Shown here piece by piece: positions 5,511 to 36,922 of a stretch of 64,000 nucleotides of DNA (positions are counted from its first letter, which is position 1; each line of letters starts with the position of its first letter). The notes beneath the pieces are model-generated. The model was not told where the DNA came from. It saw only the letters and a program-made list of their open reading frames with translations, and did not search any database. The stretch is taken from positions 178,892 to 242,891 of the forward strand of contig JAXLYJ010000005.1 of NCBI GenBank assembly GCA_046351515.1, given 5' to 3'. Source of the DNA: Polyangiales bacterium. Its GTDB lineage: Bacteria; Myxococcota_A; Polyangia; Polyangiales; Ga0077539. The position numbers were made by a program, and so were the translations under genes.

Positions 5511-6266
5511 TCACTGCACCACGGCGATCACCCAGCTCGCGTCGTCCCAGTGATCGCTCTGCGCGACGATGCGCCGAAGGCGCGCGCTGGCCGCGGCAAG
5601 ATCGCCGCGCGCGAGCACGAGCGCCGACCGAAGCTCCTCGTGTTGTGCGCGCAGATGCAGCCCGTTGGTGCAGAGCAAGAACACCGTCGTCGGCGGCGCC
5701 CGCTCGATCGCGATGTCCGGCGCCATCGTCTCTGACAGGCCGAGCGAGCGCGTGACGATCAAGTGCATGCTGCCTTCGATCGAGGCGAGCTGCTCGCGCG
5801 TGGCGCTTCCTTCGAGCAGCAGTCGCTCTTGCGCGAGCGTGTGATCGAGCGTGCAGCTGTGCAGCTCGCCTTCGACCGTGAGCGCGTACGCGCGGCACTC
5901 TCCGGCGTGCGCGATCACCGCGTCGTCTCCCTCGAAGCCGATGGCGCAGATCGTCGCTCCGGAGCCTTGCAGCGCGACGTCTCTGCGCGCTCGCTCACAG
6001 AACAGCGCGTTCGCCCGGACGATCGACTCGCGCAAGAGCAGCTCTGCGCCCGGCGGCGCGCGCAGCTCGGCGGTGTGCGCCACCGTCGCGTGATAGGCCT
6101 CGATGAAGAGCTCTCTCGCGAGCTCTCCCGCGGCGGCGCGCATCGAGCTCATCCCGTCGAACACCGCGGCGATCTGCGCGGACTCGAGCACGAGCGTGGC
6201 GTCGTCGTTGCGCACCCCGCTGCCGGTGACCGAGTCCGCCACGAACCTCGCAGCTCGGCCGATCAC
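5511..6266 (-). CDS. PP2C-family Ser/Thr protein phosphatase
   Basis: PP2C motifs are present: GSGVRNDDATLVL...AAVFDGMSS, GATICAIGFEGDDAVIAHAGECRAY, and LLCTNGLHLRAQHEELRSA. A probable GTG start at 6266 overlaps the upstream stop (GTGA). Confidence 0.65.
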   Translation of the reverse strand: MIGRAARFVADSVTGSGVRNDDATLVLESAQIAAVFDGMSSMRAAAGELARELFIEAYHATVAHTAELRAPPGAELLLRESIVRANALFCERARRDVALQGSGATICAIGFEGDDAVIAHAGECRAYALTVEGELHSCTLDHTLAQERLLLEGSATREQLASIEGSMHLIVTRSLGLSETMAPDIAIERAPPTTVFLLCTNGLHLRAQHEELRSALVLARGDLAAASARLRRIVAQSDHWDDASWVIAVVQ

Positions 6267-14989: not shown

Positions 14990-15115
14990 CGAGCGTCGCG
15001 CGAGCCGTGAGCCGTTCGTAGGGGGTGGTCGAAGGTCCGAGGCGCGACGGGGGGATCGATCGCGATGCGCTGGGATTGTTCAGCGATCCTTGCGATCAGC
15101 CTCGAGCGTGCGCGC

Positions 15116-16138
15116 TCACGGAGCGCTCGGCGCTTGGATGCCGAACCACGGCATCGGATCGATCGTGTCCGAGCCGTGGCGAACCTCGAAGTACAAGTGC
15201 GCGCCCTGTCCTTCGTCTCCCACGGTCCCGAGCACCGCGCCCGCAGGCAGCTCTTCGCCGACGCGCACCGCGACGGTCCCGAGGTTGCCCGAGACCGTGT
15301 AGTAGTGCTCGCCGTGATCGAGGATCACGAGTCGGCCGAACGCGCCGTAGCGATCGCTGAAGGCGACGCGGCCGGGATAGACGGCGCGAACCGGCGTTCC
15401 GACGGCGGCGCGCACTTCGATGCCGGGACCTTCGGCGCCCTCGCGCTGCACGCGACGCAGCTCAGCGCGGCCCGCGATCGGCAAGAGCAATCGCCCCGCG
15501 CTCTCGGAGAAGGTCGCGCTCGCGGTGTCTCCACCGCGGCCTCCGTACACGGTCACGGATCCGCCGAGCACGTTGGGCGCGACCGCCGCGACGCCGAGCG
15601 ATCCCGATCCGCCGAACAGCTCCGTCTGCTGCCTGCGCGCCGCGAGGTCCACCCGACGCTGCTGCGTCGCGGTCTTCTCTCGCTCGATGCGCTCGCGCTC
15701 GGCGCGAAGCTCCGTCGAGCGACGGCGCACCGAGTCGAGCTCATCCAGCGAAGAGACCAGCGAACGCCGCGTGTGCGCGACGCGAGACATGTGCTCGAGC
15801 AGCGATCCTGGCCCGCCTCGCAGCGCGAGAAACGCGCCCTGGCGCAGGTGATACATCCGTCGCGTCTCCCGACGCGCGCGCTCGCGCACCGCTTGCTCGC
15901 GCGCGGGCAGTCCTTCGGCCTCTTGTGAGAGCCGTCGCGCCTGCGCGTCGAGCCGCTCGACCTCGGAGTCGGCGTCCGAGATCGCTCGGTCGAGCGTCGC
16001 GAGGCGCTCTGCGGGAGACTGCGCTGCCGTTGTATCTGCCTGCGAATTCGCTGGAAGACTCTGCGCCGACGCCCCGGCTGCGATGGCGATCGCGCACAGG
16101 GCAGCCAGCGTTCGACGTTCGTTGATTCGAGCTGCCAT
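15116..16138 (-). CDS. Peptidase M23 family murein hydrolase activator (EnvC-like; coiled-coil plus LytM domain)
   Basis: Signal peptide, a long coiled-coil region, and a C-terminal M23 domain (ILDHGEHYYTVSGNLGTVAVRVGEELPAGAVLGTVGDEG...HLYFEVRHG). It is encoded directly downstream of ftsX. Confidence 0.75.
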   Translation of the reverse strand: MAARINERRTLAALCAIAIAAGASAQSLPANSQADTTAAQSPAERLATLDRAISDADSEVERLDAQARRLSQEAEGLPAREQAVRERARRETRRMYHLRQGAFLALRGGPGSLLEHMSRVAHTRRSLVSSLDELDSVRRRSTELRAERERIEREKTATQQRRVDLAARRQQTELFGGSGSLGVAAVAPNVLGGSVTVYGGRGGDTASATFSESAGRLLLPIAGRAELRRVQREGAEGPGIEVRAAVGTPVRAVYPGRVAFSDRYGAFGRLVILDHGEHYYTVSGNLGTVAVRVGEELPAGAVLGTVGDEGQGAHLYFEVRHGSDTIDPMPWFGIQAPSAP

Positions 16139-16144
16139 CGTGGA

Positions 16145-17008
16145 TCACACCTTCAGCCAGCGACGAACGGCCAGCGCGCTTCCCGTGGCGCCGAGCCCAG
16201 CGCCGCCGAGGATGAACAGGACCACCACGGGGATCGAGAGAAACACCGGGCGCATTCCGATCGAGCCGGACATGAGATCGAGCCGGCCGCGGAGCGTGAA
16301 GAAGACCATCGCGAGCAGCGTGAGCGCGAGCACCGCGCCGCCGCCGCCGAGCAGCGCGCCCTCTGCGAGAAAGGGCGAGCGGACGTAGCGCGGCGAGGCT
16401 CCGACCAGGCGCAGCACCTCGACCTCGCGCATCCGAGCGTGGAGCGAGAGGCGGACCGTGTTGCTCACGACCGCGATCGCACAGAGAAGGACAATCAGGC
16501 CGAAGATCACCGTCGCGTTGCGTCCGCCCGAGAGGACCGACTGCAGCTGTCCGGTGATTCCCTGGTAGGTCTCGACGTCGCTCACGGTGGGGAGGCGACG
16601 GACGCGCGAGGCGAGCGACTCGATGCGCGAGCTGTCCGCGACGCCTGGCGTGAGCGAGAGCTCCACGGTGGCAGGAAACAGCTCGGTGCTCGCCGACGCC
16701 ATCACGCGGTCGTCGCCCGCGACCAGCGCGCGAGACTCCGAGGGAGAGACGTAGCGGGCGCTCGAGACCTCGGGCAGCGATCCGAGCGCGGCGCGAAGGG
16801 CGTCGACCTGCTCCGCATTGGCTCCGTCCGCGAGGTAGACGGTCATACGAACGGGCCCGCCCCAGCGGCGCGAGAGATCGTTGATGTTCTGCGCGACCAG
16901 CGCTGATGCAGCGAGGCAGAACAGCGCGAGCGCGACGGTAGCGACGCTGACAACCTGAGTGCGCACGTGCTCACGCACGCCGCGCAACGCGCGCGAAACG
17001 ACCTTCAT
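16145..17008 (-). CDS. ftsX: Cell division ABC transporter permease FtsX
   Basis: Four-TM FtsX topology with a large periplasmic loop between TM1 and TM2. It follows ftsE with a 57-bp gap. Confidence 0.8.
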   Translation of the reverse strand: MKVVSRALRGVREHVRTQVVSVATVALALFCLAASALVAQNINDLSRRWGGPVRMTVYLADGANAEQVDALRAALGSLPEVSSARYVSPSESRALVAGDDRVMASASTELFPATVELSLTPGVADSSRIESLASRVRRLPTVSDVETYQGITGQLQSVLSGGRNATVIFGLIVLLCAIAVVSNTVRLSLHARMREVEVLRLVGASPRYVRSPFLAEGALLGGGGAVLALTLLAMVFFTLRGRLDLMSGSIGMRPVFLSIPVVVLFILGGAGLGATGSALAVRRWLKV

Positions 17009-24314: not shown

Positions 24315-26009
24315 GTGAGCGGAATTGCTCGCGACGCGACGCGGCGGGCCGCACTCTCTAGCGTCGAACCCGGGATTTCGCGCTACATTCCCCGGATCGT
24401 GACTGATCTCATCGACGATCCGCTCTTGGGGCAGCTCATCGACGGCAAGTACCGCCTCGTGTCCCGCATCGGTGCCGGCGGAATGGGAAAGGTCTATCGC
24501 GCCGAACAAGTCGCCCTCGGTCGTTCGGTCGCAGTGAAGGTGCTCGACGCGTCGCCGGGCCACCGCGACGCGGACCCCGCCGTCGAGCGTCGGTTCTTCT
24601 TGGAAGCCTCGCTCAGCGCGAAGCTCGCGCACCCCAACGTCATCACCGTCCACGACTATGGCCGCGTCGAGAGCGAAGACGGCGCGCGCTTCTACCTCGT
24701 GATGGAGCTGCTCGAGGGCGAGACGCTGCACCGGCGTCTGCAGCGCGGCCCGACGCCAGTGCCTGCTGCGGACGCCGTCGCGATCGCCATCGAGATCGCG
24801 CGCGGGCTGCGCGCCGCGCACAAAGCGGGGCTCGTTCACCGTGACTTGAAGCCCGCGAACGTGATGCTCGTGCCGAGCGACGAGGGCGGCTCAGCGGTGA
24901 AGATCCTCGACTTCGGTTTGGTCAAGCAGCTCGAGGGCGAGCTTCGCGAAGACATCACGCAAGAGGGCACGTTTCTCGGCTCGCCGAGGTACATGGCGCC
25001 CGAGCAGGTCTCGGCTGGCCCCGTCGATCATCGCTGCGATCTCTACGCGCTCGGCGTGATCTTGTACCAGTGCCTCACGGGCCTGACGCCGTTCGACGGA
25101 AAGACCGCGATGGACGTGCTGGTGAAGCACATCAACGCGCCGGTTCCGTGGATGCAGGAGCGCGCGCCCGGCGTCGACGTGAGCCCCGCGCTCGAGGCGA
25201 TCGTGCGACGGCTGCTCGAGAAGAACCCTGCGGCGAGATTTCCGGACGCAGAGTCCGTGGTGAACGCGCTGCGCGACGTAGCTGCGACGTTTCGCGGAGA
25301 CGTCACGGTCGCGAGCCGGTCGCAGTCTGGCGCGATGAAAGACCCCGCGCTGCAGCAGCTCGCGATCCCGATGCCCACCGCCGCGACGACCATCGTCGCC
25401 ACTGAGCCGAGCGGAACGATCGCGGGCACCTCCGTTTCTTCCGCGCAAACGCGGCCCAAGAAGAGCTCGACCGTGCTCGTCGCCGCTGTTGGCGGCCTCA
25501 CGGTCGTCGCCGCGGTCGCGCTGGTCGCGATGAACTCCGCTCGAAATGGCCGTGACAATGCGGGCTCGAGCAGCGCGGCGTCTCGTCCTCCCTCCACGAC
25601 GACCGCTCAGCAGCCGACCACGAACGGCGCCGCGCCCGCGCAGCGCGGAGTGCTCCGCATCGAGTCCACTCCGTCTGGCGCGGCCGTGCGAGAGAACAGC
25701 CTCGTGCTCGGGACGACGCCGCTCGAAGTGGCGATCGACCCGAGCGGGAGTCCGCGTCGCTTCGAGGTCGTTCAACAGGGATTTGCGCCGTATTCGTTCG
25801 AGCAGCGGCCGATCGCCGAGCGCGTGACCGTCGTCGCGGCGCTCTCTGCCGAGAGCGCGACGCAGACCGCGACCAACGCTGCCACGACCGCGCCCGTGCG
25901 CCGAACGCAGCACAGCGCGAACAATGTACGGCGAACGAACGCGACCACCACCGTGACGACGCGGACGAGCACCAACGCCGGCGGCGACGAGATCCGTCTG
26001 CAACGCTGA
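24315..26009 (+). CDS. Hanks-type Ser/Thr protein kinase with a C-terminal PEGA-like domain
   Basis: GAGGMGKVY (P-loop), VAVK, HRDLKPANVML, DFG, SPRYMAPE. C-terminal VLRIESTPSGAAVRENSLVLGTTPLEV (PEGA). The GTG start at 24315 is uncertain; an alternative GTG lies near 24399. Confidence 0.8.
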   Translation: MSGIARDATRRAALSSVEPGISRYIPRIVTDLIDDPLLGQLIDGKYRLVSRIGAGGMGKVYRAEQVALGRSVAVKVLDASPGHRDADPAVERRFFLEASLSAKLAHPNVITVHDYGRVESEDGARFYLVMELLEGETLHRRLQRGPTPVPAADAVAIAIEIARGLRAAHKAGLVHRDLKPANVMLVPSDEGGSAVKILDFGLVKQLEGELREDITQEGTFLGSPRYMAPEQVSAGPVDHRCDLYALGVILYQCLTGLTPFDGKTAMDVLVKHINAPVPWMQERAPGVDVSPALEAIVRRLLEKNPAARFPDAESVVNALRDVAATFRGDVTVASRSQSGAMKDPALQQLAIPMPTAATTIVATEPSGTIAGTSVSSAQTRPKKSSTVLVAAVGGLTVVAAVALVAMNSARNGRDNAGSSSAASRPPSTTTAQQPTTNGAAPAQRGVLRIESTPSGAAVRENSLVLGTTPLEVAIDPSGSPRRFEVVQQGFAPYSFEQRPIAERVTVVAALSAESATQTATNAATTAPVRRTQHSANNVRRTNATTTVTTRTSTNAGGDEIRLQR

Positions 26010-26055: not shown

Positions 26056-26952
26056 ATGCGCATCGCATTGCACGGATTCGCCGCCGCTGTCGCACTCACC
26101 TCCGTACTCGCTGGAGCGCCCGCGCTCGCGCAGTCGGGCCAGCGCAACCTGATCCAACTCGGTCAGCGTCAGTACGACGATCTGCACTATGAAGAGGCGG
26201 TGCAGACGCTCTCGGCGGCGATTATTCGCCCGGGAAACTCCCCGCAAGACGAGCTGCGCATCTACGAGCTGCTCGCGTACTCGTATCAGGCGCTGCAGCG
26301 CAACGACGAGGCTGAAGGAGCGTGGCGCCTCGTGCTCGCGCGCGAGCCGACGCGGCAGCCGTCGCAGGACATCTCGCCGCGCGTGCAGCAGTTCTTCACG
26401 CGCGTCCGCGAGCGTTGGGAGGCCGAAGGACGCCCCGGCGTCGCGCGCGCCAACACCCAGAACACCAACAACGGAACGCAGCAGTCGTCCAACGCGCCGC
26501 CGCCCGAGGTGCGCATCGAGCACCGATCGCCGCCGCAGCAACAGCGCGGACGTCCCGTGCCGTTGACGGCCACCGTGGTCGACCCGGGCAATCGCGTCTC
26601 GCGGTTGGTCCTCGCGTATCGGCACAACAACAGCGGGATCTTTCGTCGCGTCGACGCGCAAGCGCAGTCCGGCGGAGCGTTCGCTGTGACGCTGCCGGGT
26701 GAGACCGTTCGCCCTCCGCTCGTCGAGTACTACTTCGAAGCGGTCGACGCGACGGGCGTGCCCGTGCAAGCGCGCGGCGATGCGTTTGCGCCGCTTCGTA
26801 TCGCGGTGCCCGAGCCTGGAGGCATTCCATGGTGGGTGTGGGTCGGCGGCGGAGTGCTCGTTGCCGGCGCGGTCACCGGCATCGTGATCGGCGTCGTGAG
26901 CGCGTCGGGAAGCCAGCCCGCGACGCTCAACATCAACGTCGTCGGAAACTGA
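26056..26952 (+). CDS. Secreted TPR-like protein with a C-terminal TM anchor, probably in an operon with the kinase
   Basis: Signal peptide MRIALHGFAAAVALTSVLAGAPALA. TPR-like N-terminus. C-terminal helix WWVWVGGGVLVAGAVTGIVIGVV. Confidence 0.55.
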   Translation: MRIALHGFAAAVALTSVLAGAPALAQSGQRNLIQLGQRQYDDLHYEEAVQTLSAAIIRPGNSPQDELRIYELLAYSYQALQRNDEAEGAWRLVLAREPTRQPSQDISPRVQQFFTRVRERWEAEGRPGVARANTQNTNNGTQQSSNAPPPEVRIEHRSPPQQQRGRPVPLTATVVDPGNRVSRLVLAYRHNNSGIFRRVDAQAQSGGAFAVTLPGETVRPPLVEYYFEAVDATGVPVQARGDAFAPLRIAVPEPGGIPWWVWVGGGVLVAGAVTGIVIGVVSASGSQPATLNINVVGN

Positions 26953-26983: not shown

Positions 26984-27844
26984 ATGACTGAATCGCGCTT
27001 CGCACAAGTGCACGTCGAGTGCACGCCCGACGACGCCGACGGCGTCAGCGGCCGCCTCATGCTCCTCGGCGCAGACGGCATCGAGCAACGCGACGCCTCG
27101 ACGCTCGTGAAGGGCGGACCGAAGGGCGTCACCCTCGTGGCGAGCTTCACAGACGAGTCGCTCGCGCGCGAGGCGCTCGACGAGTTTGCCTCGGACGCGC
27201 GGCTCGAGTGGATCGTCGGCGACGACTGGGCCGACGCGTGGAAGGCGCATTGGAAGCCCACTCGACTGGGCGAGCGGATCCTGGTCGTTCCCTCGTGGAT
27301 CGAGCCCGAACCGCAGCCGGGCGACGTCGTGCTTCGGCTCGATCCAGGCCGCGCGTTCGGCACGGGGCAACACGCCTCGACCGCGCTCGCTGTCGCCGCG
27401 CTCGAGCGCCGGCTCGCTGTGCGCAAAGAGCCGCTCGTGATCGACGTCGGCTGCGGCTCGGGCATCCTCTCGTTCGCCGCGCTCTTTTTGGGCGCTGACC
27501 GCGCGGTGCTCTGCGATGTCGACGCCGACAGCATCGAAGTGACCCGCGAAAACGCCGCGCTCATCGGCCTCGCAGACCGCGTCGACGCGCGCGTCGGCTC
27601 GACCGATGTCCTGACCGAGCGCGCTTCGATGGTGCTCGCCAACATCGAGCCCTCGGTGCTCATCCCGCTCGCTGAGCCCATCGCGGCGCTCGTCGCCGAC
27701 GGCGGTTCGTTGATCTTGTCGGGCATCCTCGAGACGCAGCGCGACAACGTCGTGAACGCGTATCTGCCGCTCGGATTTCGCCTCGATCGCTGCGAACAGA
27801 TGGGCGAGTGGGTCTCGCCCGAGCTCGTTCGCGTCGCGCGCTGA
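26984..27844 (+). CDS. prmA: Ribosomal protein L11 methyltransferase
   Basis: SAM-binding motif VIDVGCGSGILSFAA within the PrmA architecture; WKAHWKP..ILVVPSW is the conserved PrmA segment. Confidence 0.8.
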   Translation: MTESRFAQVHVECTPDDADGVSGRLMLLGADGIEQRDASTLVKGGPKGVTLVASFTDESLAREALDEFASDARLEWIVGDDWADAWKAHWKPTRLGERILVVPSWIEPEPQPGDVVLRLDPGRAFGTGQHASTALAVAALERRLAVRKEPLVIDVGCGSGILSFAALFLGADRAVLCDVDADSIEVTRENAALIGLADRVDARVGSTDVLTERASMVLANIEPSVLIPLAEPIAALVADGGSLILSGILETQRDNVVNAYLPLGFRLDRCEQMGEWVSPELVRVAR

Positions 27845-27864: not shown

Positions 27865-28626
27865 ATGGCCCCGCGCGTTCGCGTGTACGTCGATCGAATC
27901 GAGCTGGGCGAGGGCGCTCGCGCGCTCGATGAAGGCGCGTCGCACCATCTCGCGCGCGTGCTTCGCTTGGACATTGGCGGGCGAATCGTCGTCTTCGACG
28001 GGCTCGGTCACGAGCAAGACGCCACGATTCAGAGCGTCGAGCAGAGCAAGCGCTCGCTGCGCGCGACGATCGCGCTCGAGGGCGAGCCGCGCCGAGGCGT
28101 CGTCGCCGACCGCGCCTCGGTGACCGTGATCCAAGGGCTCGCGAAGGGCGACAAGCTCGAGCGCGTGGTCCGCTCGTGCGCCGAGCTCGGCGCGACCTCG
28201 GTCGTCGCGGTGAGCTGCGAGCGAAGCGTGCAAAAGCTGGATGCGGCGCGGGCCGCTGCGCAGCAAGCGCACCTGCGGGCGGTGAGCGCGAGCGCGAGCG
28301 AGCAGTGTGGGCGCGCGGACGTGATGGACGTTCACGTGGGCGCCTCGTTGCTCGACGCGTTGCGCGCCGCGGCGAGCGCGGGGCGCGGGTGCATCGCCGA
28401 CGAGGCGGGTGGACGAAGCGCGCGCGCGTGGATCGAGGCGAGCGAGAGCAGGCCCCTCGCGGTGCTCGTGGGGCCCGAGGGCGGGCTGACCGACGCCGAG
28501 CGAGCGATGGCGCGCGCGTGCGGGTTCGAGTCGATTTCGCTCGGCCCGCGGATCCTCAGGACCGAGCACGCAGCGGCGGCGTTCGTCGCGATGGCCGTCG
28601 CGCTCGTCGGCGACGGCGCTGGGTGA
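27865..28626 (+). CDS. rsmE: 16S rRNA (uracil1498-N3)-methyltransferase RsmE
   Basis: RsmE-like N-terminus (VRVYVDRIELGEGARALDEGASHHLARVLRL) and C-terminal SPOUT fold (LVGPEGGLTDAERAMARACGFESISLGPRILRTE). Confidence 0.75.
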   Translation: MAPRVRVYVDRIELGEGARALDEGASHHLARVLRLDIGGRIVVFDGLGHEQDATIQSVEQSKRSLRATIALEGEPRRGVVADRASVTVIQGLAKGDKLERVVRSCAELGATSVVAVSCERSVQKLDAARAAAQQAHLRAVSASASEQCGRADVMDVHVGASLLDALRAAASAGRGCIADEAGGRSARAWIEASESRPLAVLVGPEGGLTDAERAMARACGFESISLGPRILRTEHAAAAFVAMAVALVGDGAG

Positions 28627-28713: not shown

Positions 28714-31341
28714 ATGACCACGCTGTCCGCCCTGCTCGCGCGTGAGCACGCGGTGCCTCCGCACAAGCTCGATGAGGCGATTCAGCGTCAGGTGCTCAAC
28801 GGCGGTGACCTCGAGAGCAACCTGCTCGAAGTGCAGGCCATCTCTGAAGAGACGCTGACGCGGCTGCGCGCCAAGCTCGTCGAGCTCGCGCCGGCATCGC
28901 GCTTGGAGCTGTCCAACGCCGAGAGCAACGCGCTCGCGAGGCTCGATCGACTGCAGTGCGAGTCGTTTCGCGTCCTGCCGCTGCGCATCGAAGACGGAGT
29001 GCTCGTCGTCGCGGTCGTCGATCCGCCGACCGAAGGCGCGCGCGCCACGCTCGAGAGCGCCGCGAAGATGCCGCTCTCGCTGCGAGCGACGCTGGGATTT
29101 CGCCTCGCGTGGGCGCTCGCCAAGCACTACGGGAGCGAGCTCTCTCCGAGGCTCCGCCGGCTGGCCGATCGCCTCGCGAGCGGGACGTTCGCGGCGCCCG
29201 TCGCTCCTGAAAAAGCCCCCGAGACCGCGCCTGCGCGCTCGGCGGGCGGCGTGAAGGTCAAGACCGCGGTGCTCTCGGCGCTCTCGGCGCTCTCGGCGGC
29301 GATCGAAGATGACGACGACGAGGACGAAGACAGCGAGCGCCGCGACGATCCAAGCGCAGCGCCGCCGTCCGTCGACGGCTCGAGCGACGAGCGCTCTGGT
29401 GACGGAGCGACCGAGCCTGTCGCCGTCGAGCGCACCTCGCACGAAGACATCTTGCGGCAGATCGATCAGGCGCAAGACCGCGATTCGATCCTCGCGCGCG
29501 TGCTCGATTTCGCCGCCGAACGCCTGCGCTACGTCGCGCTGTTCGTGGTGCAAGGCGACGTCGCCGAGGGGCTCGACGCGCGGGGCGACGGGTTGCCGGC
29601 CACCATGGTGCGCAGGATCGCGGTTCCGCTCGACAGCCCGAGCTCGTTTCGCGCCGTGCGCGAGCGCGGCGCGCCCGTCGTCGGAGCGCTCTCGAACAGC
29701 GGGACCGACGCCGTCGTTCGCAGCGACCTCGGTCGAGACTCGGCCCGCGCCGTCGCGCTCGTGCCCATCCACATCGGCGGTCGCGTGGTCTTGATTGTGT
29801 GGGCCGATCACGGACCGCACGTCCTCGACCTCGCCGCGCTCGATGAGGTCGTCGCGATCTGCGGGCACGCCGCGAACGCGTTCGAGCGCATCATCCGTGA
29901 GCGCAAAGCCCGAAAAGGCGCGCCTGCCGTCGACGCGACCAAGGTCACCGTCGGAGCGATCGCGCGCCGCGTCGCGGAGCAGCGCGGCGTCCAGTCGCTG
30001 CGCGCGCTCGCGGGGCGAGAGCCCGAGGACGGCGAGGGCGAGGCGCCCGCCGTTGAAAACACGACCACACAATCAAGTGCGCCGGTGGGCGAGGCTCCGC
30101 GCGCAGATGAGCCGACGAGCTCGGTCACGAGCGCTGCCCCGACCGCGCTCGCGGCGGAGGTCGCAGCCTCGCCAACACCAACACCAACGCCGGCGCCCGC
30201 GCTCACCGAGGTCGATTCGGTTGCGTCGAGCGGTGCGCGAGAAGAGATTCCGCCGCTCGATCCGCTGCCGGTCTCTGGGTCCGCAACGGACTCGTCCGAG
30301 CCTCAAGAGGTCGCCTTCAACAGCGATCCCGAGGTGACTCGTCGCGGTCTGCGCGCGCCTGAAGGCAGCGGAAAGTTCGTCCACGGAGGCCGCGTCCCCG
30401 TGGCCGTCGACGTGATCGGCCCGCTCCCGGCGCGCGGCGCTTCGATCCCGCCACCGCGCCCTGTGGACGCCGCGGACGAGGTCAACGCGCTCAAGCTCGT
30501 CGCCGAGGTCGTGCGCACTTCATCCCTCTCCGATGCGACGGCCGAGCAGCTCGTCGCGCTCGGCGAAGGGTCGCTCGACGCGGTGTTTCGGTACTTTCCT
30601 GGGCCGACGCACCACGACCGCTCCGAGCCTCGCTCGCGCGTGCCGCGCGCGGCAGAGGTGGGACCGCTGCTTCGCCTGGTGGTGATGTTTCGCCACGCCG
30701 CGGCCAGCAAGCTCAGCGACCTGCTCGCGTCCGTCGATCCAGAGCAGCGCTACTACGCCACGTTGTGCCTCGGCGAAGTCGTGTTTCCCGCGGCGCTCAC
30801 GCGGCTCGGCACGCGCCTGTTCGACTCGGACGCGCCCACCCGTCGCATCGCGCTCGAATCGCTGCGCGCCTACCGACGCTTGCCCGAGTTCGAGCGCGTC
30901 CTTCGGTCGCTGCGCAGCACGCTCGCCGACGCGAGCATCCCCGTCGAGCGCCGTCGCCTCGCCGCCCAAGCGCTCGCGGACTTGCGCGACAGCGAGGCGA
31001 TTCCGTCGCTGCTCTCGGGGCTGGCGGACGGCGATCCATCGGTCCGATCGCTGGCGCATCGCGCGCTGGTCGTTCTCGCTCGGCAGGACTTCGGCGAGGA
31101 TGCGCGCGGTTGGCGCGAGTGGTGGGAGCGCGCCGCTGGACGACACCGCATCGAGTGGCTGATCGAAGCGCTCGTCCACGACGACTCGAACATTCGTCAC
31201 GAGGCCGGCGAAGAGCTGAAGAAGCTCTCGGGCATCTTCGTGGGCTACTACTTCAACCTCCCGCGTCGCGAGCGCGACCGCGCTCAGCAGCAGTACCGCG
31301 AGTGGTGGGAGCGCGAAGGACGTTCGCGCTTCGTGCGCTGA
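28714..31341 (+). CDS. Multidomain regulatory protein: GspE-N (T2SSE_N/MshEN-like) domain + GAF-like domain + C-terminal HEAT repeats
   Basis: N-terminal LSALLAREHAVPPHKLDEAIQRQ...LLEVQAISEETLTRL...VLPLRIEDGVLVVAVVDP follows the T2SSE_N pattern. The mid region has a GAF-like fold (RYVALFVVQGDVAEGLDARGDG...). The C-terminus carries HEAT/PBS-lyase-like repeats (AIPSLLSGLADGDPSVRSLAHRAL). Confidence 0.65.
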   Translation: MTTLSALLAREHAVPPHKLDEAIQRQVLNGGDLESNLLEVQAISEETLTRLRAKLVELAPASRLELSNAESNALARLDRLQCESFRVLPLRIEDGVLVVAVVDPPTEGARATLESAAKMPLSLRATLGFRLAWALAKHYGSELSPRLRRLADRLASGTFAAPVAPEKAPETAPARSAGGVKVKTAVLSALSALSAAIEDDDDEDEDSERRDDPSAAPPSVDGSSDERSGDGATEPVAVERTSHEDILRQIDQAQDRDSILARVLDFAAERLRYVALFVVQGDVAEGLDARGDGLPATMVRRIAVPLDSPSSFRAVRERGAPVVGALSNSGTDAVVRSDLGRDSARAVALVPIHIGGRVVLIVWADHGPHVLDLAALDEVVAICGHAANAFERIIRERKARKGAPAVDATKVTVGAIARRVAEQRGVQSLRALAGREPEDGEGEAPAVENTTTQSSAPVGEAPRADEPTSSVTSAAPTALAAEVAASPTPTPTPAPALTEVDSVASSGAREEIPPLDPLPVSGSATDSSEPQEVAFNSDPEVTRRGLRAPEGSGKFVHGGRVPVAVDVIGPLPARGASIPPPRPVDAADEVNALKLVAEVVRTSSLSDATAEQLVALGEGSLDAVFRYFPGPTHHDRSEPRSRVPRAAEVGPLLRLVVMFRHAAASKLSDLLASVDPEQRYYATLCLGEVVFPAALTRLGTRLFDSDAPTRRIALESLRAYRRLPEFERVLRSLRSTLADASIPVERRRLAAQALADLRDSEAIPSLLSGLADGDPSVRSLAHRALVVLARQDFGEDARGWREWWERAAGRHRIEWLIEALVHDDSNIRHEAGEELKKLSGIFVGYYFNLPRRERDRAQQQYREWWEREGRSRFVR
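29271..29297. repeat. (GCTCTCGGC)x3 in-frame 9-nt tandem repeat (ALS)3, followed by an acidic run, inside the 28714-31341 gene
   Basis: Counted directly from the sequence. GATGACGACGACGAGGACGAAGAC follows at 29307-29330. Confidence 0.85.
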
Positions 31342-31345
31342 GCGT

Positions 31346-32485
31346 TCACGCTTCGTCGGGGCGGATCGTGTCGCGCGTGTCCGAGGTCACTCGGATCACG
31401 TTGCGCACGCGCGCGAGCGACTGTTCGTCCTGCTCGATCGTGCACCAGGTCTCGATTCGCTCGCCGAGGTCGGCGGCCCAGCGCACCAGCGCGAGCACGC
31501 GCGTCGCCGTCATTGGACCGGCGTCGACGGCGCGCGCTTGCGTGAGCGAGCACTCGAGGGCGCTGGCGGCGGCCGCGCGGTTCCACCGGCGTGTCGACGC
31601 GGGAAGCGCGCGAAGGCCCTCGTCTTGCGCGACGCGATCGAGCGCCGCGCGCGCGTCGTCGATGGCCTCGGAGAGCCCCTCGCGAAGCACGCTCGAGAGC
31701 GCGTCACACATCGCGCCGATCTCTGCGGTGAGCGAGCGCGCGGCCAGGTCCGAGCAGCGCACGAGCAGCAAATCGCGCGGCGAATCCATCTGCGGCAGAA
31801 GCTCTTCGACCCCGAGGTCCGGCGCCTCGACCACGCCCGCGACCGCGAGCACGTCCGTCCAACGTCGCAGCGGCAGCGGGTCGTGGTCATCAGGGTCGAT
31901 CGAGCCGCGCACGAGGCTGAACTGCTTGCGCGTGGTCTCGGCCATGAGCCGCGCGTGACGGCGACGAAGCTCGAGGTCCGAGGGCTTCGCGGCCCACTCT
32001 CCGACGATGCTCTCGAGCGCGCCGCGCAGGGCGTTGCTCTGCTCGGTCGCGAGCGGGGTGATCTCGGCGGGCGCGAAGAAGACTCCCTGCAGCGCTTCGC
32101 CGATCTGCAACGCCAGAAACACGTGCTCTTGCGCGCGCGCGACGCGTCGCGGATCGAAGGGCTCGAACGCGTCAGCGTGCTCGCCGAGCGCGGCGAGCGC
32201 AGAGAACGCGGACGAGCGGCGCCACAGCACGTTGGCCTTGTCGACGGGGTCGGCCGAGGTCGGCTCGGCGAGCGCGATGCGGGACAGCTCCGAGGCGAGC
32301 GCGTGCGCGTAGAGCAGCGGCACTCCGCGGTCGGCGGCGCGCGCGAGCGCGACCCACGCGACGAGCTCGGGCAAGTCGTAGAGCCAGAACGCGTCGCCTG
32401 CGGTCGAACAGCGCTCGACTACCGAGCGGACGCCCCCGTGCAACAGCGGAACCTTTTCGAGTGCGACGCGCAGCCAGTCGTGCAT
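31346..32485 (-). CDS. Hypothetical protein (start at MHDWLRV; the long Arg-rich N-terminal extension in the ORF track is rejected)
   Basis: Coherent coding from 32485 down to 31346. The region upstream of 32533 is occupied by bioA in another frame. No family was recognised. Confidence 0.45.
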   Translation of the reverse strand: MHDWLRVALEKVPLLHGGVRSVVERCSTAGDAFWLYDLPELVAWVALARAADRGVPLLYAHALASELSRIALAEPTSADPVDKANVLWRRSSAFSALAALGEHADAFEPFDPRRVARAQEHVFLALQIGEALQGVFFAPAEITPLATEQSNALRGALESIVGEWAAKPSDLELRRRHARLMAETTRKQFSLVRGSIDPDDHDPLPLRRWTDVLAVAGVVEAPDLGVEELLPQMDSPRDLLLVRCSDLAARSLTAEIGAMCDALSSVLREGLSEAIDDARAALDRVAQDEGLRALPASTRRWNRAAAASALECSLTQARAVDAGPMTATRVLALVRWAADLGERIETWCTIEQDEQSLARVRNVIRVTSDTRDTIRPDEA

Positions 32486-32532
32486 GAGCTTCGAAGGACG
32501 CAATAACACCACGATCGTAGGATCTTGTGGAA

Positions 32533-33870
32533 TTAACCGATCACGGCCGCGATGCTCTCCTCGACGATTCGAAGCAGCTCGTCGAGCGTTTCGCGGTCGA
32601 TCGTGAGCGGAGGGGCCACATACACGGTGTCTCCGAGCGGCCTCACGTACGCGCCCCGCGCGCGGGCTTCGGCGTAGACGCGCCAGCCGGCGTCCGCGAG
32701 ATAGCCGGTGTCTCCGAGGTCGATCGCGCCGATCGCGCCGAGCGCGCGCGCCCGGCGAAGCGACGGAAACCGCTGTTGCATCGCGGTGAACGCTCGCTCG
32801 ATCACCGGTCCGTTTCTCTGTACGTTCTCGAGGACGCGCTCGTCCCGATACACGGCGAGGACCTCGCGGGCGACCGCGCAGCCGAGGGGATTTCCGCAGT
32901 ACGAGTGCCCGTAGAGAAAGGCTCGCTCGCGGCCGCCCCGAAAGCCGTCGTACACGCGGTCGTTGGCGACGGTGGCCGCGAACGGAAACAGCGCTCCTGA
33001 CAGTCCCTTGGCCGAGCACAGCACGTCCGGGACGATCCCCGCTCGCTCACACGCCCAGAACGTCCCAGTGCGGCCGAGGCCCGTGAAGACCTCGTCGGCG
33101 ATCAAGAACACGTCGGCGCGGTCGCACGAAGCGCGCAGCGCCTGCAAAAACTCAGGCGGATAGATCCTCATCCCGTCCGCGCCTTGCACGAGCGGCTCGA
33201 CCACGACCGCGACGATGTCGCTCTCTCTCGACAGCGCCTCGTCGATCGCCGCGAAGGATCGCTGCCAACCGTCCGGCTCGCTCGGCGACGGCGCGCGCAG
33301 CACGTCGAACAGCAGCGGCCCGTACACCGATCGAAACGCTTCGATCCCGCCGACCGACGTTGCTCCGACGGTCTCTCCGTGAAATCCCCCGCTGAGCGCG
33401 ATGAACCGCCGTCGGTGCGCGCGGCCGTTTTGCGCGCAGTGCTGGGCGCACAGCTTGATCGCGACCTCGACGGAGGTGCTCCCGTCGTCCGAGTAGAACA
33501 CGCGCTGAAGGCGCCGATCGCTCGCGAGCGAAGGATCGTCGTGGCCGGGCATCGTCGCGACGAGCTCTTTTGCGAGCAGCGCGGCGGGCTCGTGCGTGAG
33601 CCCCCCGAGCGCGATGTGCGTGAGCGACCGCGCTTGCTCTTCGAGCGCGCGCAGCAAGCGCGGGTGTCGATGGCCCAGCGTCGCGACCCACCACGAGCTG
33701 TTTCCGTCGATGTAGCGCGTGCCGTCGAGGTCCCAAAAGTGCGGTCCCTCCGCGCGTGAGACGACGAGCGGCGGGCTCGAGTCGTCGTGCGCCGGAGTGT
33801 ACGGGTGCCACACGAACGCGCGGTCGAGCGCGAGGATCTCGTCGCGGCTCGTCACGACTCGTCCCTCCAT
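32533..33870 (-). CDS. bioA: Adenosylmethionine-8-amino-7-oxononanoate aminotransferase (class III aminotransferase)
   Basis: BioA-like N-terminus (LALDRAFVWHPYT) and PLP-lysine region DEVFTGLGRTGTFWACERAGIVPDVLCSAKGLSG. Confidence 0.8.
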   Translation of the reverse strand: MEGRVVTSRDEILALDRAFVWHPYTPAHDDSSPPLVVSRAEGPHFWDLDGTRYIDGNSSWWVATLGHRHPRLLRALEEQARSLTHIALGGLTHEPAALLAKELVATMPGHDDPSLASDRRLQRVFYSDDGSTSVEVAIKLCAQHCAQNGRAHRRRFIALSGGFHGETVGATSVGGIEAFRSVYGPLLFDVLRAPSPSEPDGWQRSFAAIDEALSRESDIVAVVVEPLVQGADGMRIYPPEFLQALRASCDRADVFLIADEVFTGLGRTGTFWACERAGIVPDVLCSAKGLSGALFPFAATVANDRVYDGFRGGRERAFLYGHSYCGNPLGCAVAREVLAVYRDERVLENVQRNGPVIERAFTAMQQRFPSLRRARALGAIGAIDLGDTGYLADAGWRVYAEARARGAYVRPLGDTVYVAPPLTIDRETLDELLRIVEESIAAVIG

Positions 33871-35429
33871 CGAACGTTGTGGCGCCGGAGCAGGTCGTAG
33901 AAGTCCGTTCGATTTCGACCTGCGATCCGAGCGGCCGCGGTGATGTTGCCGCTCGCTCGTCGAAGCACCTCGACGAGGTAGGCGCGCTCGAACGCGTCGC
34001 GCGCGTCCTTGAGCGTCGGCAGCGGTCGATCAGGATCGGTGAGGATTTTCAGAGGGTCCTGCGCGCTCTCGCGGTGCTCGTCGCTCGCGGAGGGCTCTGC
34101 GTCCTCGATCCCTGCGCTGCTCGTCGCGCGGGGCGGAGCCGCGGTCGCTCCGGCGAGTCGCGAGAGGTCTTCGGCGCTGAGATCGTTGCCCGACGCGAGG
34201 ACGGACGCGGCCTCCATCATGTTGGCGAGCTCGCGGACGTTGCCGGGCCAGGGCCACTGCAGCATCCAGTCGATCGCCGAGCGCGTGAGCGCGGGCACCT
34301 TGAGGTTGTGCCGCGCGGAGGCGCGTTCGAGAAACACCTCGGCGAGCAGGACGATGTCCTCTCGTCGCTCGCGAAGCGGCGGCATCTCGAGCGGGACGAC
34401 GTGGAGCCGAAAGAACAAGTCCTCGCGAAACCGCCCCTTGCTCACGTCCGCGCGCAGGTCTCGATGCGTCGCGGCGACGACGCGCACGTCCGCCTCTCGC
34501 TCGTGCGTCGATCCGACCGGTGTGTACCGACGCTCTTGCAGCACGCGCAAGAGCTTCACTTGCACGTTGAGCGGAGCGTCGCCGATTTCGTCGAGAAAGA
34601 GCGTCCCGCCGTGGGCTGCGGCGAACAGGCCGTCGCGGTCGCGCGCCGCGCCGGTGAACGCGCCGCGGACGTGCCCGAACAGCTCGCTCTCGAGCAGCTC
34701 CATCGGGATCGCCCCGCAGTTGACCGCGACGAACGGGTGCTTCGAGCGCGACGAGAGCTGATGAATCGATCGCGCGGCGAGCTCTTTGCCCGTGCCGCTC
34801 TCGCCGGTCACCAGCACCGTCACGTCCGCGGTCGCGATGCGCGCGATGAGCTCTCGCGCTGCGTTGATCGCGCGAGAGGTTCCGAGGATCGAGCCGCTGA
34901 CCTCCTCGCCGACGATGCGACGAAAGTCCGCGACCTCGCGGCGCAGCGCGGCGTTTTCGATCGCGTGGCGAACGCGCTGCAGAAGCTCGTGGTGATTGAA
35001 CGGCTTCGTGAGAAACCCGAACGCTCCGCGGCGCATCGCCTCGACGGCGGTGTCGATGGTCCCGTGCGCGGTGAGCATGATCACAGGGACGTCCGGGCAC
35101 CGCGCCCTCAGCTCCGTGAGCAGCGTCAGCCCGTCGCCGTCAGGCAGGCGAAGGTCGAGGACGATCGCGTCGAGCGCGCCTTTGACGACGCGCGCGCGCG
35201 CTTGGGCGACGGTCTCTGCTCGCTCGGTGCGATAGCCGTTCGCCTCGAGGCGCATCGCGAGAAGGGTGAGCATCTCGGACTCGTCGTCGACGAGCAGGAT
35301 GGTCGGCGGAGGAGGAGCGACAGACCGTCGGGGAGGAATCGATGTCACGGTGCGCCTGCGGTCGTGCCGCGTTCGACGCTCGGACGCAACCCTTACTGCG
35401 CCCTCTCGTGCACTTCGAGCGGCAGCCAC
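33852..35429 (-). CDS. Sigma-54-dependent response regulator (NtrC family: REC + AAA+ + Fis HTH)
   Basis: REC ILLVDDE...DLRLPDGDG. Sigma-54 interaction domain GESGTGKE...GAFTGA...[11 protein letters not shown]; ESELFGH matches the GAFTGA-family motif. C-terminal HTH. The start is uncertain (GTG 35429, or an internal GTG near 35347). Confidence 0.8.
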
Positions 35430-36922
35430 AGCTCGAACCTCGCGCCGCGCTCGCCCTCGGGAGTCTCTGCGATCCGCGCGTCGCCGCCGTGCGCGCGGGC
35501 CACTTCGCGCGCGAGGGCGAGGCCCAATCCGATTCCCACGCGGCGGCTCGCGCCGGTCTGCGCGGTCACAAACGGCTCGAAGAGCGTCTCTCGCGCCTCG
35601 GGCGCGACGCCCGGACCCTCGTCCTCGACGCGCACGCGCGCCCAGCGCTTCGCGGCGCTCACCGGCGAGTCCCGCAGCACCTCTCGCGCAGGAGCGTCGC
35701 TGCTTCGCACGCGCACGCGCACCGTGCTCTGCGCGGGAGACACCTGCACCGCGTTGCGAACGAGGTTCGCCACCGCGCGCTCGACGAGCGGGGCGTCCAT
35801 CGTCCGCACGAAGTTCGCCGCGTCGTGTTCGAGCTCGATCGCGATCGATTTGCTCTGCGCGTCCTCGCGCTCGGCGGCGACCGCCTCGCGCACCACGTCG
35901 AGCAGCGAGCCCTCGGTGTGCATTTGCACAACGCTCGCAGCCCGCAGCCGAGAGAGGTCGAGCAGGTTGCTAACGAGGGTGATCTGGCTCTCGCACGCGC
36001 GTCGAGCGATGGCGACGAGCGAGGCTTGCGTCGGGGCGAGCTCGCCGGCGGTTCCGTCTTCGAGCAGCGCGAGCGCCTCGCGGATCTTCGCGAGCGGCGT
36101 GCGCAGCTCGTGCGAGACCGACGCCACGAAGCTCTCTTTGAGCGCGTCGACCGCCGCGAGCGCGTGGCGCATCCGCTCGAGCTCGTCGGCGAGCTCGGTG
36201 ACCTCGAGCGGGCCGTCGACAGGCTCGATCGGCGCGAAGTCTCCGCGGCCGAGCCGCGATGCGTCCTTCGCGATGCGCGCGAGGGGCCCGGCGACCGAGC
36301 GCGTCAGCCACCGCGCCAGAAGCGCCACGATCAGCACCGCGACGACGGTGAGCACTGAGCCGATCGCGAGCGATCGTTGGCCGGTGCTCCTCGCGCGCGT
36401 CTCGCGCAGCCCGATCTCTCGATGCAGCGCGAACGACTGCGCGATCCACAGGTCGGTCAGCTGCGTGTCGAGCGCGTTGCGCGCAGAGCGGGCCTCGCTC
36501 GTCCGCAGCACCACGCACGCGCTGCTCGAGAGCGACTGCGCCGCGAGCGCCTCGTAGCGAAGCCCGAGCTGCCGCATCTCCGCGCCCACGTGCGGGCCCA
36601 CGTGCCGATCCTTCTCTCGCAGCACGCGCAGCGCCTCGGCGAGAGGAGGGCGCACCGACTCGTCCGGAGCGCCTCGATCACAGGCGTCGCTCGCGTGACG
36701 CATGGCCACTTCGACCGCCCACATCGCGCGATGCAGCGCCTCTTGCTCGTCGATCGCGCCCAGCTCGTCTTCGCGCAGCTCACGCAGATAGTGGTCGATC
36801 CGACGCAGCGAAAACCCACCGAGCGCCACGGTCGTCGCGAGCGCGAGCGCGAGCAGCCCGTGCGAGACCGCGAGCGCAAACCCGAGCGTCCATCGTCTCG
36901 ACCGACGCGAAGCAGCCATCAC
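35393..36922 (-). CDS. Two-component sensor histidine kinase (TM-HAMP-HisKA-HATPase)
   Basis: Two TM helices. H-box HELRTPLAKI. N/G boxes (VRNAVQVSP..., GIGLGLALAREVARAHGG). It sits immediately upstream of the NtrC-type regulator. Confidence 0.75.
   Translation of the reverse strand: MMAASRRSRRWTLGFALAVSHGLLALALATTVALGGFSLRRIDHYLRELREDELGAIDEQEALHRAMWAVEVAMRHASDACDRGAPDESVRPPLAEALRVLREKDRHVGPHVGAEMRQLGLRYEALAAQSLSSSACVVLRTSEARSARNALDTQLTDLWIAQSFALHREIGLRETRARSTGQRSLAIGSVLTVVAVLIVALLARWLTRSVAGPLARIAKDASRLGRGDFAPIEPVDGPLEVTELADELERMRHALAAVDALKESFVASVSHELRTPLAKIREALALLEDGTAGELAPTQASLVAIARRACESQITLVSNLLDLSRLRAASVVQMHTEGSLLDVVREAVAAEREDAQSKSIAIELEHDAANFVRTMDAPLVERAVANLVRNAVQVSPAQSTVRVRVRSSDAPAREVLRDSPVSAAKRWARVRVEDEGPGVAPEARETLFEPFVTAQTGASRRVGIGLGLALAREVARAHGGDARIAETPEGERGARFELWLPLEVHERAQ

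Follow-up and report, generated by a model that had tools for sequence, protein, structure and literature searches.

The window analysed here is a stretch of 64,000 nucleotides from the genome of a Polyangiales bacterium (assembly GCA_046351515.1, contig JAXLYJ010000005.1). An FrgA-family gene occupies positions 28714..31341 (+) of it and encodes, from an ATG start, a protein of 875 aa in which three conserved domains, MshEN-like, GAF and HEAT in that order, are separated by disordered linkers. The protein was 100% identical to 'hypothetical protein U0269_09485 [Polyangiales bacterium]'. The called ATG was retained as the right start because the N-termini of the window protein and of its homologues were in register, M1 being nearly invariant. 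Gene coordinates and Pfam agreed with the flanking genes described in the initial annotation: rsmE, a 16S rRNA methyltransferase gene (PUA_4 and Methyltrans_RNA; 27865..28626, +), lies directly upstream, preceded by prmA (26984-27844), and a 379-aa gene without family match (31346-32485) follows on the strand opposite to the FrgA-family gene. No transmembrane segment was detected in the window protein, the top hydropathy window being located inside a beta-hairpin of the GAF domain, and a soluble, cytoplasmic protein is the best reading of its sequence.

Farther downstream, 2.5 kb from the gene, on the opposite strand (convergent) and with two genes between, Pfam identified a two-component pair. 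It comprises a REC-sigma54 AAA+-HTH_8 response regulator of the NtrC type (33855..35429, -) and a HAMP-HisKA-HATPase_c sensor histidine kinase (35396..36922, -), which are, by position, FrgC-like and FrgB-like and represent probable partners. A 933-aa ORF on the other strand (33756-36557, +) also emerged as a recurrent neighbour. It was rejected as the antisense of the kinase and regulator genes, its product being Arg/Ser-rich and without family match, and all counts of NtrC-type neighbours given below were made with the real kinase and regulator proteins.

The N-terminal MshEN/GSPII (T2SSE_N) domain (28714..29193, +; residues 1-160) displayed both the four-helix N subdomain and the T2SSE_N1 C subdomain. 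Pfam MshEN PF05157 was matched by residues 64-144 with E=2.5e-12 (47.1 bits, cut-off 23.1). A family profile built on residues 1-165 retrieved from the PDB the N-termini of PilF (1e-32), M. xanthus PilB 3jc8 (E=2.5e-18), MshE 5htl (E=7.7e-9) and XpsE (1.7e-4). Alignments with PilF, PilB and MshE began at residue 3-4 of the profile, and positions 3-148, covering both subdomains, aligned with PilF, M. xanthus PilB, Geobacter PilB and MshE. The window protein therefore has the fold, the two-subdomain layout and the 24+5+24 spacing in common with MshE, PilB and PilF (5htl, 3jc8, 8pdk), but lacks the ATPase domain that follows in these proteins: PF00437 (T2SSE ATPase) found no match in it even at E<=10, the remainder being GAF and HEAT.

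The middle domain (29425..29919, +; residues 238-402) corresponds to the stretch designated 'UNK' in FrgA. A Pfam search with the whole window protein yielded no GAF match, while the isolated block 238-402 aligned to the full GAF_2 profile (1-136) with E=8.7e-6 and 26.4 bits, below the cut-off of 28.6; GAF_2 was matched by the middle block in 15 of the 23 members tested. The profile of this block also matched a solved GAF domain, 3oov (E=4.6e-4). Its AF2 model (pLDDT 95.5, pTM 0.90) gave 362 Foldseek matches in the PDB at E<=1e-3; among the best 50 of these, almost every one was annotated as GAF or phytochrome, with TM about 0.7. The middle domain is accordingly assigned a GAF fold, an antiparallel sheet backed by helices. 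It resembled the GAF domains of Lcd1 (5w10), PtsP (3ci6/3trc) and a Geobacter MCP (3oov) in fold (TM about 0.65-0.72 over about 165 residues), but only 12-19% of residues were identical and no known ligand motif was identified in it. Residues G291, G293, R341, P351 and D365 were conserved specifically in the family. Assignment of a GAF fold to the formerly unknown middle domain of FrgA is a modest addition to what was known of this protein.

The C-terminal part (30469..31338, +; residues 586-875) is a HEAT-repeat solenoid. HEAT_2 was detected in the window protein with E=6.5e-11, and the C-terminal profile matched alphaRep/PBS-type HEAT designs with 3e-52. AF2 returned an all-helical model (pLDDT 93.3) of about six to seven helical hairpins plus a long terminal helix, for which Foldseek retrieved alphaRep and armadillo designs. 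PBS-lyase-type HEAT and alphaRep scaffolds have the repeat pattern and the helical-hairpin solenoid in common with the window protein, whose solenoid differs in curvature (TM about 0.4) and carries an N-terminal cap with an invariant FPGP motif. A Trp-rich C-terminal extension is unique to the FrgA family; the family signature of this region, RQDFG..W..WW...RHRIEWLI.AL.H....R..A.EELK...G...GYY..L...ER..A...Y..WW, contains invariant Trp and Arg columns. On the whole, the domain content proposed in the initial annotation, namely an MshEN-like N-terminus detached from any secretion ATPase, a GAF-like domain and HEAT/PBS-lyase-like repeats, was borne out, by HMM searches and, for GAF and HEAT, by structure prediction, with GAF_2 under its cut-off; the soluble scaffold that it envisaged was likewise supported.

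The same annotation considered this architecture not to be a described family, which did not hold: 'MshEN - UNK - HEAT' is the architecture listed for M. xanthus FrgA (MXAN_1130) in Supplementary Table 4 of Wang et al. 2016. NCBIfam contains no model for FrgA, and the 70-residue FrgA N-terminus given in the supplement of Wang et al. 2016 retrieved only two short fragments from a large protein database. Metagenome contigs were scanned with these two fragments for full-length FrgA-type genes, which were tied to the named M. xanthus FrgA by protein search. HHalign of 100 Polyangia representatives against seven FrgA-type proteins gave a probability of 100% and E=3.8e-71 over 739 columns, including all three domains. 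BLASTP against 'FrgA protein [Myxococcus xanthus]' (P0183) produced three collinear segments: HEAT (33% identity, E=2e-27), GAF (33% identity, E=3e-19) and the N-terminus (25% identity, E=0.02), which was weak in pairwise comparison and convincing at the profile level only. Given this full-length homology, the window protein belongs to a family already described and does not represent a novel type of c-di-GMP receptor; its gene is, as judged from these alignments, probably an orthologue of frgA.

Among the matches listed for representatives at 50% identity, 150 out of 150 had E<1e-177, nearly all of them end to end. A search of species genomes yielded 463 relatives, and each fetched locus contained one copy of the family gene. 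A second modest addition concerns distribution: the FrgA family is a large one, conserved in Polyangia and Myxococcia alike (the two major classes of Myxococcota) and recurrently linked to a pair formed by a histidine kinase and an NtrC-type regulator. For the Polyangia members, the labels 'hypothetical protein' and 'GspE/PulE/PilB domain-containing protein' can be replaced by 'FrgA-family protein'.

The favoured reading, to which we assign a probability of roughly 0.6, is that the window protein is a Polyangia member of the FrgA family and acts as a cytoplasmic sensor-scaffold in the regulation of motility and polarity. [quoted passage not shown] FrgA was also recovered by proximity labelling with MglA-miniTurbo (PMC10630675), and frgA insertions resemble those in frzF/E/B (preprint 10.64898/2026.08.28.747804). 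Since no published biochemistry on FrgA-family proteins was found in the literature, every step of the mechanism is one that we infer. The protein would be a soluble cytoplasmic adaptor in which three folded modules, identified as above and with putative roles, are carried on long flexible linkers. Its PilB/MshE-type N-terminal domain has kept the fold, and its most likely role is protein docking, because the residues that hold c-di-GMP are lost (see below). The GAF domain may provide an input, either a small molecule or dimerisation, and the HEAT solenoid may bind partner proteins. By way of these modules, the protein would contribute to regulating cell polarity and the reversals of motility (in M. 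xanthus, the MglA/Frz circuitry), with a genetic coupling to a two-component pair of the FrgB/FrgC type, a histidine kinase and an NtrC-type regulator. The domain boundaries defined here can be used for ligand and partner screens in myxobacterial motility research.

A role as a pilus or secretion accessory would rely on the same N-terminal domain, which could dock on the platform proteins used by the assembly ATPase (PilM/PilC or GspL); the protein would then act directly on type IV pilus assembly, as a competitor or recruiter, and not by way of the polarity or reversal circuit. Among natural proteins, the N-terminal profile matched the N-termini of pilus-assembly ATPases best, including that of M. 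xanthus PilB; swarming is reduced in the frgA mutant, and MglA proximity labelling recovered PilM together with FrgA (PMC10630675). However, pilus and secretion genes were absent from the surroundings of the gene in the window and from the recurrent neighbour clusters annotated in other loci, the protein has no ATPase domain and the insertion profile of frgA was frz-like rather than pil-like (10.64898/2026.08.28.747804). Such a role was consequently considered unlikely.

The FrgA family could also be a ligand-gated polarity and motility scaffold, in which the GAF domain or a remodelled MshEN site binds a small molecule and which is coupled to MglA/Frz-type reversal control and to the FrgBC two-component system. 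This is a tentative proposal that we regard as improbable. The remodelled MshEN site would be the near-invariant R25-Q26-x3-G-G-D/E junction recognised in the family alignment, and the ligand might be a different nucleotide messenger, or else c-di-GMP held in a novel, non-canonical mode.

It is rather doubtful that the Polyangia proteins form a paralogous family of their own, with the ancestry and architecture of FrgA but a different cellular role. The window protein displayed the module order and the long Pro/Ala-rich linkers of FrgA (MXAN_1130, ABF88426), together with full-length homology and a degenerate c-di-GMP motif, but identity was only 25-33%, a level that would suit paralogy. The N-terminal signatures differed as well, being GGD-h-x-T-N-LLE in the window type and GG-x-h-D-S/T-x-LLE in FrgA. 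Position 1 of motif I has kept its Arg in FrgA (Arg4) and is Thr in the window protein, and the acidic residue of motif II, which the window protein has at position 1, occupies position 3 in FrgA. The middle domain, 'UNK' for FrgA in 2016, was found to be GAF in the present analysis. Against paralogy, the three domains are collinear, the C-terminal signatures are common to both subfamilies and the gene is single in each fetched locus.

Gene neighbourhood bears on this question in both directions. It was variable across Polyangia: unbiased clustering uncovered no universally conserved partner, and outside the prmA-rsmE and NtrC-type links most Polyangia loci displayed unrelated housekeeping neighbours that depended on the clade (HemD/CobA, SDR, NamZ, LigA, MgtE). 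An upstream rsmE and a downstream NtrC-type regulator were nevertheless common to both subfamilies. The former was present in 27 out of 79 Polyangia loci and in five out of ten FrgA-type loci; the latter was located 1-3 kb downstream in 3+13 Polyangia loci and five out of ten FrgA-type loci (about 21/89 in all), recurring in three diverged clades. In M. xanthus, frgA (MXAN_1130) is accompanied by frgB (histidine kinase, MXAN_1129) and frgC (NtrC-like, MXAN_1128), and an FrgA-type locus (L084) displayed the corresponding order, with a histidine kinase directly downstream of the frgA-like gene followed by a REC-sigma54-HTH regulator. In the window, by contrast, the pair is convergent to the FrgA-family gene, with two genes in between. 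NtrC-type regulators are abundant in myxobacteria, and orthology of the pair to FrgBC (42-49% identity) is therefore putative.

The initial annotation had proposed a candidate c-di-GMP-responsive regulator, a proposal that was contradicted, under the refuting condition which it had itself named, by the absence of the conserved Arg positions of the motif. Motif positions were set by gap-free alignment to M. xanthus PilB with the 5htl offset, and residues were counted over 100 family members. The counterpart of the 53-residue c-di-GMP motif (28720..28878, +) consists of two tandem 24-residue units, motif I (residues 3-26) and motif II (residues 32-55), separated by the five-residue spacer (27-31; Q26 is followed after five residues by D32), with hydrophobic positions kept. 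At position 1, where Arg (R/K/P/N in relaxed form) is expected, the window protein has T3 in motif I (28 T, 28 absent, 23 A, six S and four K among the 100 members) and D32 in motif II (87 D and nine E). Gly at position 3 is replaced by S5 in motif I (71 S, 21 T and only two G) and by E34 in motif II (34 V, 21 E, 20 A and eight D). Gln at position 24 is retained as Q26 in motif I, as in 98 of the 100 members, and is gone from motif II, in which L55 takes its place (37 S, 19 L and 14 A). The c-di-GMP motif of Wang et al. 2016, in strict or in relaxed form, was matched by 0 of the 100 Polyangia family members, NCBIfam model NF053729 scored 19.2 bits against a cut-off of 38 with the window protein, and the motif was degenerate in nine out of nine FrgA-type members. 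The MshEN domain of the family is thus systematically stripped of its c-di-GMP contact residues, a further addition to the description of FrgA. Because of this loss, genome surveys should not list the FrgA family among c-di-GMP receptors.

A stand-alone c-di-GMP receptor, whose MshEN domain binds the messenger while GAF and HEAT control the output, is hence very unlikely. It would be consistent with the true MshEN fold and its canonical spacing of two helix-turn-helix units, with the retained Leu skeleton and motif I Gln and with the almost invariant junction R25-Q26-x3-G30-G31-D32, which suggests a functional site; moreover, PilF GSPII-B binds tightly despite Lys or Leu at position 1. However, the backbone amide of Gly at position 3 contacts guanine (Wang et al. 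2016), binding is abolished in MshE G11I, and the failure of XpsE to bind was blamed on changes including G11V and G40L; neither motif of the window protein retains this Gly. The acidic residue present in 96 of the 100 members at position 1 of motif II would lie beside the ligand seat. In PilF, GSPII-A combines a good motif with a degenerate one and fails to bind c-di-GMP, and FrgA itself was placed among the predicted non-binders (Wang et al. 2016). No GGDEF, EAL or PilZ gene was encountered among recurrent neighbours. MshE, PilB and PilF differ from the window protein in the Arg and Gly contact positions of both motifs and in the Gln of the second. The XpsE N-terminus (2d28) and PilF GSPII-A likewise display an MshEN fold with substituted key positions and were experimentally found not to bind c-di-GMP; these domains sit in secretion or pilus ATPases, whereas that of the window heads a GAF-HEAT protein. 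A mere fragment of a secretion or pilus ATPase was rejected, the ATPase domain being absent and the ORF complete and conserved.

Linker 2 (29920..30468, +; residues 403-585) is Pro/Ala/Ser/Thr-rich and of variable length, with low conservation and occupancy; it contains two short clade-specific motifs that are absent from the broad family. Linker 1 (29194..29424, +; residues 161-237) is of low complexity and acidic (25% D+E), and holds the peptide KVKTAVLSALSALSAA, which is clade-specific and conserved in the close clade only. The threefold repeat noted earlier in this linker is exact: (GCTCTCGGC)x3 at 29271..29297 (+), with 0 occurrences expected by chance, encodes LSALSALSA directly before the acidic run EDDDDEDEDSE. 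The peptide was conserved in the close clade and is thus a conserved helix-like motif. At the DNA level, the exact (GCTCTCGGC)3 repeat was also present in a homologue of 76% identity (L002), and two copies were found in another (L003). An unstable, variable microsatellite was rejected for this 9-bp repeat since homologues conserve not only the peptide but also the DNA repeat itself.

The family gene was found at 28714..31341 on the forward strand, exactly where the initial annotation had placed it, with an ATG start and a product of 875 aa that was 100% identical to the database entry 'hypothetical protein U0269_09485 [Polyangiales bacterium]'. In an alignment of 24 homologues, conservation fell into three blocks (residues 1-160, 238-402 and 586-875), joined by low-complexity linkers whose length varied. 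No transmembrane segment was detected in the protein, and no ATPase domain was found by Pfam search.

This three-block architecture had been regarded as undescribed, which proved incorrect: 'MshEN - UNK - HEAT' is listed for Myxococcus xanthus FrgA (MXAN_1130), with the distribution 'Myxococcales' (Wang et al. Supplementary Table 4, PMC5013675). Starting from the FrgA N-terminal fragment printed by Wang et al., full-length FrgA-type genes were retrieved from metagenome contigs, one of which (L083) was 84% identical to NCBI entries named 'FrgA protein [Myxococcus xanthus]'. Alignment of the window protein with M. xanthus FrgA was collinear across all three domains, with 33% identity in HEAT (E=2e-27), 33% in GAF (E=3e-19) and 25% in the N-terminus (E=0.02). 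Profile-profile comparison of 100 Polyangia representatives with seven FrgA-type proteins extended over the whole length (739 columns, probability 100%, E=3.8e-71). Membership in the FrgA family, as well as the domain identities described below, can be considered established. The family itself was already known, and what is added here is modest: FrgA's 'UNK' domain is identified as GAF, the family occurs widely among Polyangia and is recurrently linked to rsmE and NtrC-type genes, and its MshEN site is systematically degenerate.

In the protein search, the name 'FrgA protein' was used for entries from Myxococcus, Corallococcus, Stigmatella, Archangium and Cystobacter. 'Comamonas sp. JC664' is the label of a full-length 'FrgA protein' (P0184), and 'Longimicrobium sp.' MAG that of a partial entry (P0294); since the other organism-labelled matches of the same list were myxobacterial, both probably derive from mislabelled or contaminated assemblies. 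FrgA was given as locus 3225, 'polysaccharide export', by Goldman et al. 2007 (PMC2129111), while two other sources equate frgA with MXAN_1130 (PMC5013675; 10.64898/2026.08.28.747804), a locus number consistent with frgB as MXAN_1129 and frgC as MXAN_1128.

All three domains proposed from the sequence were recovered. Residues 64-144 matched Pfam MshEN (E=2.5e-12), and a profile of residues 1-165 matched the solved N-terminal domains of PilF (1e-32), M. xanthus PilB (2.5e-18), Geobacter PilB, V. cholerae MshE (7.7e-9) and XpsE. These alignments began at position 3-4, indicating that both MshEN subdomains are present. GAF was not detected when the whole protein was searched; the isolated middle block covered the entire GAF_2 model with a score just below the Pfam threshold (26.4 vs 28.6 bits), and GAF_2 was matched by this block in 15 out of 23 members. 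Its profile also matched the solved GAF domain 3oov. The AlphaFold model of the block (pLDDT 95.5, pTM 0.90) gave 362 Foldseek matches in the PDB at E<=1e-3; among the top 50 listed, nearly all carried a GAF or phytochrome annotation (TM about 0.7). The C-terminus is a HEAT solenoid, as indicated by HEAT_2 (E=6.5e-11), a profile match to alphaRep designs (3e-52) and an all-helical model (pLDDT 93.3).

The MshEN module had led the initial annotation to propose a candidate c-di-GMP-responsive regulator, with a lack of the conserved Arg/Leu/Gln positions of the binding motif named as grounds for refuting it. The c-di-GMP site consists of two copies of RLGxx(L/V/I)(L/V/I)xxG(L/V/I)(L/V/I)xxxxLxxxLxxQ with a five-residue spacer, for which a relaxed search pattern was also given; G11I abolishes binding, and non-binding by XpsE was attributed to changes including G11V, R38G, G40L and Q61V (Wang et al. 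2016, PMC5013675). With the register set by the offset of MshE and by an alignment with M. xanthus PilB that contained no gaps, motif I falls at residues 3-26 and motif II at residues 32-55 of the window protein. The canonical Arg of position 1 was replaced by T3 in motif I (T/A/S or absent in the family) and by D32 in motif II (Asp/Glu in 96 out of 100 diverse family representatives). At position 3, Gly was replaced by S5 (Ser/Thr in 92/100) and E34 (Val/Glu/Ala/Asp), while the Gln of position 24 was kept as Q26 in motif I (98/100) and lost in motif II (L55). Neither the strict nor the relaxed pattern matched any of the 100 representatives, and the motif likewise failed in all nine FrgA-type proteins. 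On the NCBIfam motif model NF053729, the window protein scored 19.2 bits (cut-off 38) and M. xanthus FrgA 16.1 bits. FrgA was already placed in the predicted-or-proven non-binder column by Wang et al. (Table 3, PMC5013675). In PilF, GSPII-A combines a good motif with a degenerate one and fails to bind c-di-GMP, and GSPII-B accepts either Lys or Leu in position 1 (PMC11731258). Judged by sequence, the MshEN site of the family is systematically degenerate. The c-di-GMP reading thus fails on the grounds that the initial annotation had itself set, and a c-di-GMP receptor, if not strictly impossible, is improbable. The hydrophobic skeleton forming the helical bundle was retained in the 100 representatives, and the junction R25-Q26-x3-G30-G31-D32 was almost invariant, which suggests that some functional site remains there.

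An exhaustive profile search yielded at least 150 cluster representatives at 50% identity, those listed all with E<1e-177 and nearly all matching end to end, and 3826 proteins at E<=1e-30. When one genome per species was scanned, 463 relatives emerged; the 79 loci kept, including Minicystis rosea, Byssovorax and Sandaracinus, were all labelled myxobacterial or deltaproteobacterial. Members in Polyangia and the FrgA group of Myxococcia together place the family in both of the phylum's major classes.

The gene is preceded on the same strand by prmA (26984-27844) and rsmE (27865-28626) and followed by a convergent hypothetical gene of 379 aa (32485 to 31346, reverse strand), a neighbourhood already read correctly from the sequence. 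The 379-aa gene had no family match. Beyond it, also on the reverse strand, lie a class-III aminotransferase (33870 to 32536), a REC-sigma54 AAA+-HTH_8 regulator (35429 to 33855) and a HAMP-HisKA-HATPase kinase (36922 to 35396), the last two assigned by Pfam. These four genes (31346-36922), with overlapping or near-abutting ends, form an apparent operon converging on the family gene, with stop codons 4 nt apart, and their arrangement recurred in the loci L001, L002 and L004. In M. xanthus, frgA adjoins frgB (histidine kinase, MXAN_1129) and frgC (NtrC-like regulator, MXAN_1128), a cognate pair verified biochemically (PMC3892784). The FrgA-type locus L084 displayed, on one strand, a frgA-like gene followed by a HisKA/HATPase kinase and a REC-sigma54-HTH regulator. 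An NtrC-type regulator was found 1-3 kb downstream of the family gene in three groups of loci, with 79-85% identity in the close clade of the window, 46-49% in 13 more distant Polyangia loci and 42-49% in five of the ten FrgA-type loci. Upstream, rsmE was present in 27/79 Polyangia and 5/10 FrgA-type loci; the other neighbours were unrelated housekeeping genes differing by clade. The common position supports orthology and falls short of proof, since NtrC-type regulators are numerous in myxobacteria.

No biochemical work on FrgA-family proteins was found in the literature. In M. xanthus, a frgA mutant swarms less, and normal aggregation into fruiting bodies depends on FrgA; rippling is altered in a frgC mutant. 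FrgA was recovered by proximity labelling with the polarity GTPase MglA (PMC10630675). According to a transposon-sequencing study posted as a preprint in 2026, insertions in frgA behaved like those in frzF/E/B, and its authors group frgA with genes contributing to motility reversal regulation (10.64898/2026.08.28.747804). Given this genetic and proteomic evidence on FrgA and FrgC, the best-supported mechanism is that of a cytoplasmic adaptor. Its N-terminus would be a docking domain derived from that of PilB/MshE, GAF an input or dimerisation module and the HEAT solenoid a partner-binding module; such an adaptor would operate in the control of polarity and reversals and have a functional link with a two-component system of the FrgBC type.

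The linkers contain three short conserved peptides, KVKTAVLSALSALSAA (29236-29301, residues 175-196), VDATKVTVGAIARRVAEQRGVQSLRALA (29926-30015, residues 405-434) and GGRVPVAVDVIGPLP (30379-30438, residues 556-575), which were kept only in the close clade, were missing from the broad family and may be clade-specific interaction motifs. The (GCTCTCGGC)3 repeat, noticed earlier, was matched exactly at 29271-29297 and encodes LSALSALSA, directly followed by an acidic run. A slippery microsatellite was rejected: the peptide was kept within the close clade and the DNA repeat was shared with a 76%-identical homologue, which argues for a conserved peptide motif.

An open reading frame of 933 aa with high GC3 (33756-36557, forward strand) was rejected as a gene, being an antisense frame of the kinase and regulator genes; it was Arg/Ser-rich (R 16%, S 12.5%), had no family or PDB match and gave misleading 'conserved homologues' by tblastn. 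Ahead of the prmA cluster, the window encodes a Ser/Thr protein kinase that carries a PEGA domain at its C-terminus (24315-26009, forward strand), and kinase homologues also lay close to the family gene in many further loci, in varied positions and on either strand. Directly 5' of prmA, a conserved hypothetical gene of 298 aa (26056-26952, forward strand) displayed only weak TPR-like matches below cut-offs (TssQ family, PilW), and its position was kept in 14 loci. Between rsmE and the frgA-like gene, FrgA-type loci carried a gene such as that at 4317-5948 (forward strand) of L084, encoding a Pro-rich protein of 543 aa with an N-terminal Cys-rich stretch, a hydrophobic C-terminus and no Pfam or NCBIfam match. 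In the distant Polyangia locus L029, a 7TM-receptor HD-hydrolase (7TMR-HD) gene (14746-16668, reverse strand) was located downstream of the family gene, two genes past the NtrC-type regulator.
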